Shown piece after piece: positions 27,795 through 31,047 of a DNA stretch of 51,933 bases. The stretch lies in sequence record SRR22947725_4333; one strand, given 5' to 3'. The translations under genes were made by a program, and so were the position numbers. A model generated the notes under the pieces. The model saw only the letters and a list, made by a program, of their open reading frames with translations. It was not told the DNA's origin and did not search any database. Every line of letters starts with the position of its first letter. Position 1 is the stretch's first letter.

Positions 27795-28265
27795 TTAGTC
27801 AAACCACTCGGTTGGTGGACCGAGAAACAAAAGGAAGCCAAAGATTGCCGGGAGGACCAAAACGATCAAAAGCACAAGTATCACGGGCCTTGCGATAAAC
27901 CACCTGAAGAGCCTGTCAATTACACCCTTGTCTCGAGGATCTTCGGTTGGCTCGGTGCGCCAGGAACCCTCGAGAGCATTTTGTTTGAGCAGCCTCCGGT
28001 CAAAGGGAACGGTCGCAAATGGAACGATTGCAAGCGCTACTGCCCCGGCGATTTTGCCTATTGCCCAGCGCTGGTTCAGCCCTACCAATACCGCCACCAC
28101 GCAGTAGCTGAGGAACATGGCTCCGTGAATGCTTCCGGCAATCGTGACAGCGTGAGGGATCAGGTCACCGAGCGCCCTTGAGAGAAGCGCCGCTATCAAT
28201 AGTCCCCAGGTAATTGCCTCACCGGTTGCAAAGAATCTATAAATGGATTTCGGGCTGGTATTCAA
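27795..28265 (-). CDS. DUF3817-family membrane protein
   Basis: EAITWGLL, GSIHG, AIVPFATVPFD; TTG start at 28265 after AGGAG. Confidence 0.78.
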   Translation of the reverse strand: MNTSPKSIYRFFATGEAITWGLLIAALLSRALGDLIPHAVTIAGSIHGAMFLSYCVVAVLVGLNQRWAIGKIAGAVALAIVPFATVPFDRRLLKQNALEGSWRTEPTEDPRDKGVIDRLFRWFIARPVILVLLIVLVLPAIFGFLLFLGPPTEWFD

Positions 28266-28314
28266 GGTCTCTCCTATCAACCCAAGCTTAAGTCACTGCC
28301 CTAGGCTCGTTGGT

Positions 28315-29232
28315 GTGAGTGACGCTTCAAGTAAGGCAATTGCTATCGCAATCTCAGTCCTTGCTGGCGGGTTCATGGCCGTTCAGGCCAGGGTTAATTC
28401 GGGTCTTGGGGTCGCACTCGAAAATGGCATTCTTGCGGCTTTAATTTCGTTTTCTTCAGGGCTAGTGATCATTGGGGTAATCGTCGCCATATCAAAGCGT
28501 GACCGAGCCAAGCTCCGGGCTTTTACTAGCCGTATCGGCAGGGGCTTTCCGCTTTGGGGGCTCGCTGGTGGACTGCTTGGTGGTCTGTTTGTCATCACCC
28601 AGGGCACTGTCGCCGGGGTCATAGGCATCTCGCTTTTCGCGGTCTCAGTAGTCACAGGCCAAGCTCTTGCCGCTCTCACAATTGACGGTCGGGGTCTACT
28701 TGGAATGACAAGGCGTCCCCTTGGTCTCCTAAGGATTCTTGGGACGGCGTTTGCAGTCGCCGGGCTGATTGTCACCGGTGACTTTGCCAACTACAGCTTC
28801 CAACCAATCTCTCTGCTGCCTTTTTTGGCCGGTATAGGCATTGGATTCCAGCAGGCATTAAATGCCAACCTCGGCAGGCAGACCGAATCAGCGGTGGTTG
28901 CAACGCTTATCAACTTCGTCCTAGGTACTGCCCTGATTGCAATCGCACTACTGGTCACCAACGGTGGCTTCCAGTTCTCCGGAGAGTTTCCCACCGAGCC
29001 GGTTCTCTATATCGGTGGCCTTGTGGGGGTGGTGTTTATCTTTGTTCAGGTCGTGCTTGTGCCAAAGATCGGGACCCTGGCCATGGGAGTGTCCCTCCTG
29101 GTGGGTCAGCTGATTAGCTCGCTGCTATTGGACCTAGTCGCACCAATCTCATCAAGAGAAGTTACTGGCTACACCCTCGCGGGAGTGCTGCTCGCTCTTG
29201 TTGGTGCAACCCTGGTGGCAAAAAGACGCTAG
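28315..29232 (+). CDS. DMT family transporter (double YdcZ/DUF606)
   Basis: AVQARVN, GGLLG, GQ repeated as QQALN, GGLVG, GQ; GTG start after -10 TAGGCT. Confidence 0.82.
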   Translation: MSDASSKAIAIAISVLAGGFMAVQARVNSGLGVALENGILAALISFSSGLVIIGVIVAISKRDRAKLRAFTSRIGRGFPLWGLAGGLLGGLFVITQGTVAGVIGISLFAVSVVTGQALAALTIDGRGLLGMTRRPLGLLRILGTAFAVAGLIVTGDFANYSFQPISLLPFLAGIGIGFQQALNANLGRQTESAVVATLINFVLGTALIAIALLVTNGGFQFSGEFPTEPVLYIGGLVGVVFIFVQVVLVPKIGTLAMGVSLLVGQLISSLLLDLVAPISSREVTGYTLAGVLLALVGATLVAKRR

Positions 29233-29822
29233 AGCTTCTCAATCAAGACATCAGGGTGGGCATCAAAGCGGTAGCCCTGTCCGCGAGCGGTCCTGACGAT
29301 GTCCTCATATAGCCCGAGCTTCGAGCGCAGCCTGCGAACGTGAACGTCGATGGTCCTGAAGTTTGGGGTTCCCTCTCCGCAGCGCTCAGAGATTGAGGCG
29401 ATGGTCTCCCGCGTCACAGTTTGACCCTCGTTCTCGATCAGCAGTGCCAAAAGTTCATACTCCTTGCAGGTGAGTGGAGCGTGGCTGCCGTCAACGAAGA
29501 CCTTCTTGCGGCTCAGGTCCACAACTACTCCCTTTGCTGCCTCAACTTCGTCGGGCTCTGGCTTAGCCGCACGAACCGCTCTTGGCTCCCCCAGCGCTAG
29601 CCGAGTGATGTCCAGGGGCCTACCGGATGATTCCTCTGGGGCAATCGCGAGCGCCGCATAGGTTTCATTGGCTGATGTTGGAACTAGCTCGGAGAGCTTG
29701 GCTTTCAAAGCCGATGCAATCTCGGCGAGGCTAAGGCCTGCGGCCTCTGCCTGCTGCTCTGTGATGCCTACGTATAGAGCGAAGCCCTTGGCCTCGGTCT
29801 GCTTCTTTAGTGCTGTTGTCAT
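29229..29822 (-). CDS. Orphan OmpR/PhoB-type winged-helix regulator with a non-receiver N-terminal domain
   Basis: C-terminal LTCKEYELL...RTIDVHVRRLRSKLG...RTARGQGYRF; RBS AAAGGA before the ATG at 29822. Confidence 0.88.
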   Translation of the reverse strand: MTTALKKQTEAKGFALYVGITEQQAEAAGLSLAEIASALKAKLSELVPTSANETYAALAIAPEESSGRPLDITRLALGEPRAVRAAKPEPDEVEAAKGVVVDLSRKKVFVDGSHAPLTCKEYELLALLIENEGQTVTRETIASISERCGEGTPNFRTIDVHVRRLRSKLGLYEDIVRTARGQGYRFDAHPDVLIEKL

Positions 29823-29920
29823 TTTTATGAGTCCTTTGTGAGTGCATGAAATTGGGTGCACGAATCACGTGCGTTTGTTGGGGTGCTGGTGCCTAATTGC
29901 TAATCAGTAAGCAAGGTTGA

Positions 29921-30010
29921 TTAGCGGCACATGCGCATGCACATGCACATTGCCATCGAGCAGGAGAAGCTAGCGCCAGTGGCGCCCGTCTCAACTGATC
30001 GACTACTCAT
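29921..30010 (-). CDS. Putative Cys/Met-rich leader peptide, 29 aa: MSSRSVETGATGASFSCSMAMCMCMRMCR
   Basis: Hand translation. 4 Cys and 5 Met in the last 13 codons; directly downstream of a TTGACA-N18-CATTAT promoter; ends 98 nt before the wHTH gene. Confidence 0.75.
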   Translation of the reverse strand: MSSRSVETGATGASFSCSMAMCMCMRMCR

Positions 30011-30018
30011 TGAAATAA

Positions 30019-30048
30019 ATAATGGGCTAGATAGGCCGCCTGTGTCAA
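30019..30048 (-). promoter_or_regulatory. SigA-type promoter for the leader peptide/wHTH transcript
   Basis: TTGACA (30048-30043), N18, CATTAT (30024-30019), 8 nt, ATG. Confidence 0.6.
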
Positions 30049-30074
30049 ATTCTTACGCTTTGTTACGGCAGGTC

Positions 30075-30887
30075 TTAGACCCTAGCGAGTAGCCACTCAA
30101 AGATGTCCTCTTCGACCTCGCTCTTGCACAGGTCGTTGAGAAGCTCGTGGTGGCCACCCGGGTAGATCTTGAGCTCTTTGTCAGGACTTGCGATCGCCTG
30201 GTGCAGCCCCATGGAGTTTAGGTGTGAGGTGGAGGTGTCCTTGTTGCCGTGAATTATCAGGGTGGGCGCCTTCCAGTTTCCGGTTGCCGCCCAGACCTGG
30301 TCCGATACCTCCAAGACTGTCTTGGCAACGAGGTTCTTTGCCTTGCCCTGATAGAAAAGCTCGTCCTTTTCAACCTCTGCCAAAAACGCCTTGTCCCTCG
30401 AGAGGGCCTCGATGCCGGGTCTTGGAAGTGGCATTGGGGCACCTGGGGCAAAGCGGGTGGAGACGTTTGTCAAGATGCGCTCCCAGCGCTTTGAGGGAGT
30501 CTGCATGGCGCTGGCGTCAATGATTGCGCCTGTGATGTTGCCTCGCTCGCGGACAATGCTGGCGCCTGTTATCAAACCGCCGAGGGAGTGCCCGAACAGC
30601 ACAGTTGGCAAGCCAGCTGGCAGTCTTGAGCGGGCCTGGAGATGCAGGGCCACCCCTTGATTGACATCGACAAGCCCGCGCTCACCCGCGGTTCTGCCGT
30701 GACCTGGCAAATCAAATGCGTAGACGTCGATGCCCTGCTGATTGAGCTTGGGTATTAGTTCGCTGTAGTAGGTGAGGTACCGCTCGGAATACTCACTAAG
30801 ACCGTGCATCAAAAGTAGTTGTGCCCGAGGGCTAGCGGACTTCCAACTAAAGGCCGCTACCGGAGCACCAATGTCCCATGTAGCCAT
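30075..30887 (-). CDS. Alpha/beta hydrolase (lysophospholipase/monoglyceride lipase-like)
   Basis: HGLSE, DLPGHG, GHSLGG, HG..D, HELLND; leaderless TACCCT-N6-ATG. Confidence 0.9.
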   Translation of the reverse strand: MATWDIGAPVAAFSWKSASPRAQLLLMHGLSEYSERYLTYYSELIPKLNQQGIDVYAFDLPGHGRTAGERGLVDVNQGVALHLQARSRLPAGLPTVLFGHSLGGLITGASIVRERGNITGAIIDASAMQTPSKRWERILTNVSTRFAPGAPMPLPRPGIEALSRDKAFLAEVEKDELFYQGKAKNLVAKTVLEVSDQVWAATGNWKAPTLIIHGNKDTSTSHLNSMGLHQAIASPDKELKIYPGGHHELLNDLCKSEVEEDIFEWLLARV

Positions 30888-31047
30888 GGGATAAGGGTAG
30901 GGGAGCTGCGAGCAATTGTGCTGCTGGTCGTTCGGCGATGCTTATCCCTCGGCCACGCCGAACAGGAGCTGAATCATTGGGCTAACCTATTAACCACTTC
31001 AGCGCCCAGCGCCGCGCGAGAGACTTCTTTATCTAAGGATCAAAGCA

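Follow-up and report, generated by a model that had tools for sequence, protein, structure and literature searches.

A conserved and probably leaderless Cys/Met-rich reading frame precedes an OmpR-type regulator gene in Microbacteriaceae and is a candidate sensor of sulfur amino-acid supply

Cysteine-rich leader peptides are already known in Actinobacteria (PMC1262725; 10.1101/834739). In mycobacteria, leaderless polycysteine small open reading frames (sORFs) such as Ms5788A act as attenuators of a "Cys ribulon": their Cys codons pair with the Shine-Dalgarno (SD) region, and stalled ribosomes have been proposed to block the duplex (Canestrari et al., 10.1101/834739). Also in mycobacteria, a uORF (upstream open reading frame) in the 5′ leader of whiB7 controls a transcription factor (Poulton et al., 10.1101/2023.06.02.543512). 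Here we describe an unannotated, probably leaderless 29-codon sORF, rich in Cys and Met codons, which lies upstream of a winged helix-turn-helix (wHTH) regulator gene in a 51,933-nucleotide stretch of DNA from record SRR22947725_4333 (this whole stretch is called the window). We lean slightly toward the view that the sORF is a cis-acting sensor through which the ribosome would read the supply of sulfur amino acids and set translation of a transcription factor conserved in the family Microbacteriaceae.

Like the Ms5788A type, the element in the window is an unannotated, apparently leaderless actinobacterial sORF whose C-terminal Cys codons complement the region around the SD of the next gene, with no terminator. 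It differs in that Met is kept beside Cys, and in the window's genus the two alternate without a Cys-Cys pair, apart from some members (MMCCSM, FCCSM); most other genera have Cys-Cys (MCCRMC). It also differs in an obligatory CGA-AUG (UCG-AUG in the window's genus), in extra conserved hairpins and in offering its codon run another segment to pair with. Whereas the Ms5788A type controls a Cys-metabolic operon, the target here is a wHTH transcription factor and the taxon is Microbacteriaceae. With whiB7 the locus would share a uORF that is enriched for one amino acid and controls the factor answering its starvation, with feedback onto a biosynthetic enzyme. However, whiB7 is controlled by antitermination, its uORF is rich in Ala and the factor is of the WhiB type, while this locus has no terminator, a leaderless Cys/Met sORF and an OmpR-type wHTH protein. 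Attenuators of the trpL type, and a leader upstream of metY in another actinobacterial family (L089, described below), are alike in combining a short ORF enriched for the codons that regulate with alternative pairings of the RNA and cis control, and L089 shares the motif MCCR(CGA)M. Unlike them, the window lacks a terminator hairpin with a U-run, and its start appears leaderless rather than SD-led. A search of the main texts of the open-access literature yielded no Cys/Met leader from Microbacteriaceae, and none in front of metY or of a regulator gene. Control of sulfur amino-acid synthesis in this family, which includes abundant streamlined freshwater and marine lineages of the Aquiluna type, appears to be undescribed there.

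An earlier sequence-only reading of this DNA had picked out the sORF, a TTGACA-N18-CATTAT promoter with the start codon 8 nucleotides (nt) further on, the Cys/Met codons, a C-rich spacer with a small hairpin and no terminator, and a CATGCAC complement before the SD. We found every one of these in place (Table 1). Cys or Met account for 9 of the final 13 sORF codons (ATG TGC ATG TGC ATG CGC ATG TGC), and GTGCATG is present twice, in overlapping copies (29948-29936). The promoter is the sole promoter-like site in 29150-30150 (10/12 consensus matches; 0.4 expected from shuffles), and the same consensus scan detected no minus-strand terminator-like site (G+C-rich hairpin plus U-run) in the leader. 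The spacer from the sORF stop to the regulator ATG (29822) is 98 nt long and includes CACCAGCACCCCAACAAAC. The sORF peptide had no match in Pfam or NCBIfam. As a separate observation, the part of the codon run reading ATGTGCATGTGCATGCGCATGTGC (29927-29950, minus strand) is 24 nt of strict purine/pyrimidine alternation, with the palindrome CATGCGCATG inside it.

The sequence-only reading had named the lack of a conserved sORF in orthologues as grounds for refutation; a Cys/Met-rich sORF is in fact conserved upstream of orthologous wHTH genes. Our genus set comprised the window and 29 genomes of the same genus (30 loci; the relatives' genomes are 0.7-1.9 Mb, and some sources name their proteins Aquiluna sp.). 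In 30/30 loci the sORF comes with its promoter and with a leader of 190 nt that is structured, so the sORF is more than chance. Outside the genus, a homologous sORF precedes the same regulator in 24/27 loci, representing 17/18 other Microbacteriaceae genera, and typically reads MT..R.LTS.EA.G.AGMMMP...VMCCRMCA. A strict nucleotide pattern for the sORF core, ATGYGYTGYCGAATG, matched 16/20 family genomes, once each, versus 14/381 other genomes of the class; all 16 family matches were the sORF 5′ of the regulator, and a reversed-pattern control gave 7 matches in the 401 genomes. The sORF also occurs in one other family of the order (L060, ..MRCCRMHA), where the start codon is GTG and lies 6 nt past the -10 element. 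At two loci with more distant regulator homologues (G046 and G060), no Cys/Met sORF was present within 1.1 kb.

Several patterns indicate that the sORF is a reading frame under coding constraint, rich in Cys and Met codons. Gap runs in the genus alignment were multiples of three in 50/50 cases inside the sORF, versus 24/124 downstream, and the +1 frame was interrupted by stops in 27/27 distinct genus sequences. Each of these 27 sORFs carries 3-5 Cys and 3-6 internal Met, Cys and Met together making up 32% of residues; codon 2 alternates between AGT and TCT/TCA. In other genera, the Arg codon ahead of a Met codon is CGA in 37/37 cases, compared with 40/569 (7%) of the Arg codons of the regulator ORFs, and UCG takes its place before AUG in the window's genus.

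The promoter layout suggests that transcription probably begins at the sORF AUG or 1 nt before it, so that the mRNA would be leaderless. All 29 genus sequences in the alignment have TTGAC unchanged, and the -10 element lies 7-8 nt from the start codon in the genus and 6-7 nt in other genera, where the order is again TTGAC, -10, then ATG. Metatranscriptome contigs from 3 studies cover the 5′ part of the regulator, the leader and the sORF, and end at 30004, 30000 and 29990, 6-20 nt short of the ATG. Two of the three contig ends fall in adapter sequence, depth is zero at 30006-30036, and parts of the window have no RNA cover in some runs. We take the contig ends as a weak hint of an mRNA 5′ end, which contigs cannot prove. 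At three loci of other genera (L045, L047 and L041), the sORF 5′ sequence AUGACCG is paired, in minimum free energy folds, with a CGGUCAU that immediately precedes the Cys codons. Such pairing suggests that the leaderless start might be hidden once the sORF has been fully transcribed, making a single-round sensor possible.

Immediately 5′ of the SD lies a variable segment that complements each lineage's own Cys/Met codon run. The pairs (pre-SD segment/codon run) are CAUGCAC/GUGCAUG in the window and, elsewhere, CACAUCGA/UCGAUGUG, GCACAUAG/CUAUGUGC, UUCGCAU/AUGCGAA and UUGCCA/UGGCAA; in other genera, AUUCGACA between the SD and the AUG faces UGUCGAAU, or GCAUCAUCA faces MMM codons. When the last 15 codons were compared with the region from -27 to +3, perfect complements of at least 7 nt were present at 15/29 genus loci and 16/23 other loci, with a locus-wise p ≤ 0.05 at 9/29 and 10/23, respectively. 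At least 10 different k-mers form these complements, among them GTGCATG, TCGATGTG, CTATGTGC, ATGCGAA, TGTCGAAT and TGATGATGC. Pairing of each sensor with its own pre-SD segment was stronger than cross pairing (-13.5 versus -11.9 kcal/mol), a difference that 0/20000 permutations reached. Own pairs also exceeded cross pairs across 15 clades (-12.7 versus -11.1; 54/50000 permutations) and between the sORF 5′ bases and the SD-AUG spacer (-4.05 versus -3.00; 148/50000 permutations), although the clades in these two tests were grouped by us from the same sequences, which lessens their value to our interpretation.

The leader is predicted to fold into conserved hairpins, P1, P3 and P4. A covariance model built from a hand-drawn structure was used to realign 32 sequences; double changes then occurred in 16 pairs overall, compared with 9.1±1.5 in shuffles (0/500 reach 16) and 5-8 in slid-partner controls, but fitting the alignment to the very structure under test favours that structure, and this again counts against us. 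RNAalifold adds a pairing, P2, between the codon run (GUGC-A-UG..GUGCC) and an invariant GGCAC-CA-GCAC. The columns of P2 hardly vary: we found G-U-compatible changes only, plus one double change in another genus. From the sequence, then, the codon run complements two partners, the invariant GGCAC-CA-GCAC and the variable pre-SD segment. The invariant strand lies in a 37-nt block that is unchanged across the genus. The 30-mer core of the leader is single copy in 50/62 genus genomes, including 24/24 high-quality ones, and was found in only 1/101 family genera. A search of 28500-31000 against Rfam gave 0 matches at E ≤ 1. The P4 part of the 37-nt block, ACGUGAUUCGUGCAC, resembles a segment, AAGGAUUCGACAC, from the ribosome-binding site (RBS) region in other genera, where the regulator's N-terminus is longer and rich in Pro/Ala (MSLATL..); the block might be left over from an earlier start.

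The only domain match of the regulator is Trans_reg_C (PF00486; residues 115-186, 9.6e-17), with no receiver-domain match in Pfam or NCBIfam. In a structure model, residues 22-86 form an N-terminal domain of helices. In Foldseek searches, the DNA-binding domain matched those of GlnR, PhoB and ArlR, with GlnR the best match in structure and in sequence (36-38% identity); the fold search accounts for this domain and not for the N-terminal one. The protein resembles GlnR, the actinobacterial orphan OmpR/PhoB regulator, in its DNA-binding domain, and GlnR's half-site, gTnAc, is like the GTnAC repeats described below (PMC10235972). It differs in lacking a receiver domain and in having a helical N-terminal domain of about 90 residues that belongs to no known family, and the repeats are spaced at 10 bp rather than 11 bp. 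The sequence-only reading had called the regulator an orphan; if the word is taken to mean rare, this does not hold, as it is single copy in 194/201 Microbacteriaceae genomes, covering 98/101 genera sampled, at 51-61% identity. Within the genus (29 genomes), orthologues are 64-98% identical.

A link to sulfur metabolism comes partly from another actinobacterial family. At L089:1440-1660 (genome G653), an SD-led sORF, MSSRQMCMCCRMMFIAGA, is followed by a hairpin (CCCCGG..CCGGGG) with a U-run and lies about 100 nt 5′ of a 438-aa metY-like gene; its peptide includes MCMCCR(CGA)MM. We interpret this leader as a terminator-type Met/Cys attenuator with the MCCR(CGA)M motif. In Microbacteriaceae, Rfam at gathering score had no match at metY, nor was there one at the paralogue loci. 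In the window's genus, metY has GTTAC-N5-GTTAC 9 nt 5′ of its -35 element, cysK has GTAAY-N5-GTAAY about 27 nt 5′ of its -10 element, and the repeat at the window's sORF promoter has one mismatch to GTTACN5GTTAC. Genome-wide, GTAAYN5GTAAY has 3 matches in G026, at the metY, cysK and rhodopsin promoters, and 7 in G009, of which the only two that are intergenic and close to a promoter are those of cysK and metY. In a high-GC genus, read mostly by eye, the sORF promoter carries GTCAY three times, metY has GTGAC-type repeats and cysK has GAAAT-GGAAT-GTAAC. The rhodopsin gene of G026 (Bac_rhodopsin, 1.7e-35) has a triple repeat, GTTAC-N5-GTTAC-N6-GTTAC, about 120 nt upstream (L113:1480-1515).

On the best reading of these data, the locus would be an attenuator of the mycobacterial polycysteine kind, in which ribosomes stall on a leaderless sORF, but reading Cys plus Met and controlling a transcription factor. 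When Cys-tRNA and Met-tRNA are ample, the ribosome would clear the sORF and the codon run would pair with the pre-SD segment; pairing of the 5′ AUGAGU with the SD-AUG spacer would aid closure, so that the RBS would be enclosed and little regulator made. If one or the other charged tRNA ran short, the ribosome would stall on the codon run, no duplex would form, the RBS would be free and the regulator would be made. The regulator would then probably activate cysK, metY and its own promoter via the GTnAC-N5-GTnAC repeats, whose activator-like position fits more regulator under starvation. We infer the output (RBS unmasking or Rho), the sensing of Cys and Met, and the regulon alike. The attenuator put forward in the sequence-only reading thus holds in part: conservation, the leaderless layout, coding constraint, the fact that Cys codons are kept along with Met codons, and the co-varying RBS complement fit it, while the pairing energy is unremarkable and the C-rich spacer fits Rho equally.

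In addition to the grouping of clades and the fitted alignment mentioned above, a number of observations weigh against this interpretation. The predicted duplex is of ordinary strength, with no special stability: compared with dinucleotide shuffles, the mean z of its energy is -0.8, with p ≤ 0.05 in 9/52 loci and p=0.126 for the window, and the window's sensor pairs equally well or better with 44/52 other ORF-start windows. The 5 Cys of the window's sORF include no adjacent pair, where two or more successive Cys codons toward the C-terminus are expected of polycysteine sORFs. The invariant P2 competes for the codon run in a role that the model does not explain, nor does the model account for the invariant CCCRACAAAC and the P4 loop. 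A low-depth contig from a fourth run (X6, 29988-30100, depth 3.9) crosses the promoter. One streamlined genus with genomes of 1.3-1.4 Mb (g33; loci L033, L034 and L035; genomes G095, G194 and G268) keeps the regulator and lacks the sORF; metY is missing in 2/3 of these genomes, cysK is in all 3, and one genome has metY and cysK yet no sORF. The regulon link was drawn partly by eye: the repeat was seen by eye in about half of the genus sORF promoters, the other half having no clear repeat, and the count of repeats across the window (14 versus 16 expected) is not above chance. Finally, the half-site of GlnR is gTnAc (PMC10235972), making GTnAC GlnR's as well. Because the DNA-binding domain of the regulator is closest to that of GlnR, the repeats suit the regulator but could be GlnR's. 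A GlnR-like recognition helix was considered as a means of assigning the repeats to the regulator and was rejected, as the motif is common to the whole family. The "sulfur master switch" of the sequence-only reading is left with indirect support, in the form of an MCCR(CGA)M peptide 5′ of metY elsewhere, repeats common to the sORF, cysK and metY promoters, and their activator-like positions, and with the competing assignment of the repeats to GlnR.

The same sORF sensor could instead act through Rho. The C-rich spacer would be a rut site whose exposure is set by pairing of the codon run with GGCACCAGCAC (P2), and the position of the ribosome would determine whether Rho loads and ends transcription early, ahead of the regulator. 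Rho has been proposed for actinobacterial Cys leaders (PMC1262725), the leader lacks an intrinsic terminator, and the invariance of P2, with its tolerance of G-U-compatible changes and one double change only, suits this mechanism. The excess of C over G in the spacer, which fits Rho as well as it fits RBS masking, is kept: C is 0.31 and G 0.16 in the genus (strand background 0.27/0.26), with the best 60-nt window in the top 5% of its locus at 29/29 loci, and C is 0.41 and G 0.23 in other genera, where 20/23 loci reach the top 5%. However, C/A richness is also required of any complement to AUG/UGY codons, and the co-varying pre-SD complement would be superfluous. Moreover, a stalled ribosome would expose the C-rich tract and lower the regulator in starvation, a poor fit to activator-like repeats at cysK and metY. 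We consider a Rho output unlikely.

Two further explanations do away with simple sensing of charged tRNA. A nascent arrest peptide, ..M-C-C-R-M-C-x-stop with its obligatory CGA-AUG, might stall on a small molecule or a codon pair. Conservation does extend beyond Cys and Met (the MS[ST]R start, LTS.EA.G.AGMMMP, and CRMC two codons ahead of the stop), the motif recurs in the unrelated leader before metY, and the Arg codon is CGA in all 37 cases. Since CGA-AUG complements AUUCG elements near the RBS, its invariance is explicable by a constraint on the nucleotides; the UCG AUG of the window's genus and the lack of any indicated ligand also argue against arrest, which we regard as very unlikely. 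Equally improbable is a frame that does not sense tRNA charging, whether because the leader works as a structured RNA (like a riboswitch, or bound by protein) or because the peptide is a free-standing Cys/Met-rich small protein with a metal-binding or redox role. The 37-nt invariant block and the covarying hairpins would suit an RNA, and the conserved peptide sequence a protein; Cys and Met are both soft-metal ligands. But neither Rfam (at E ≤ 1) nor Pfam and NCBIfam hold a match, and the frame, the start spacing and three-fold indels are kept across groups of differing nucleotide sequence. The invariant block is confined to one genus while the sORF is family-wide, and the element always stands in cis to one gene.

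If the ribosome-read sensor is real, a 29-codon unannotated gene would be the sensor of a family-wide regulon, with charged tRNA read on the sORF setting the level of the factor and, through it, cysK and metY. Ribosome-read sensing would then reach beyond single operons, such as those behind the Cys sORFs of mycobacteria, and include a hierarchical circuit, for which whiB7 is the only comparable case we found. Methionine would be added to the amino acids sensed by ribosome-read sORFs, and the conserved regulator of 98/101 genera would gain a testable function. A wider reading, which we offer tentatively and think doubtful as a whole, is that the MCCR(CGA)M leader is an old portable Met/Cys sensor that gates single enzymes (metY) in some lineages and, in Microbacteriaceae, sits on a GlnR-like factor activating cysK, metY and itself via GTnAC repeats. 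In eukaryotes, GCN4 and ATF4 exemplify the control of a master regulator by uORFs. The portable sensor, if real, would be a bacterial counterpart of that logic, and the missing sulfur amino-acid regulator of Microbacteriaceae.

Table 1. Positions of the sORF, its promoter, leader elements and the regulator gene in the window
Feature	Position	Strand	Remarks
Candidate operator, direct repeat GTAAC-AAAGC-GTAAG	30052-30066	minus	GTnAC-N5-GTnAC type; 3 nt 5′ of -35
Promoter	30019-30048	minus	TTGACA (30048-30043), N18, CATTAT (30024-30019), then 8 nt to sORF ATG; consensus scan
Probable leaderless sORF, 29 codons, MSSRSVETGATGASFSCSMAMCMCMRMCR	30010-29921	minus	unannotated
P1 hairpin inside sORF, GGCGCC-ACU-GGCGCU	29972-29986	minus	both-side changes in 6/7 pairs across genus
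Candidate sensor core, Cys/Met codon run TGC TCG ATG GCA ATG TGC ATG TGC ATG CGC ATG TGC CGC	29924-29962	minus	predicted to pair with P2 3′ strand (29893-29883) or pre-SD segment (29848-29842)
P3 hairpin, GCUAAUCA...UGAUUAGC	29899-29925	minus	contains sORF stop codon; both-side changes in 8/8 pairs
Genus-invariant 37-nt block, GGCACCAGCAC-CCCAACAAAC-GCACG-UGAUU-CGUGC-A	29857-29893	minus	holds P2 3′ strand (29893-29883) and P4 hairpin
P4 hairpin, GCACG-TGATT-CGTGC	29872-29858	minus	
Pre-SD anti-sensor, CAUGCAC	29848-29842	minus	complement of sORF GUGCAUG
Regulator RBS	29820-29837	minus	SD AAAGGA (29837-29832); spacer ACUCAU, complementary to sORF 5′ AUGAGU; ATG 29822-29820
wHTH regulator, 197 aa	29229-29822	minus	helical N-terminal domain of no known family; OmpR/PhoB-type DNA-binding domain

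Neighbouring genes gave no hint of function, synteny of the hydrolase and YdcZ genes being limited to the genus. The regulator gene and the convergent YdcZ-family gene (28243-29232, plus strand) share 4 nt at their 3′ ends (29229-29232). In other genera (L036, L038, L045, L032 and others), the gene 5′ of the sORF has the same orientation and encodes a protein ending in ..IVPGLGDAGDRLYG, which we take to be the signature of uracil phosphoribosyltransferase (upp).

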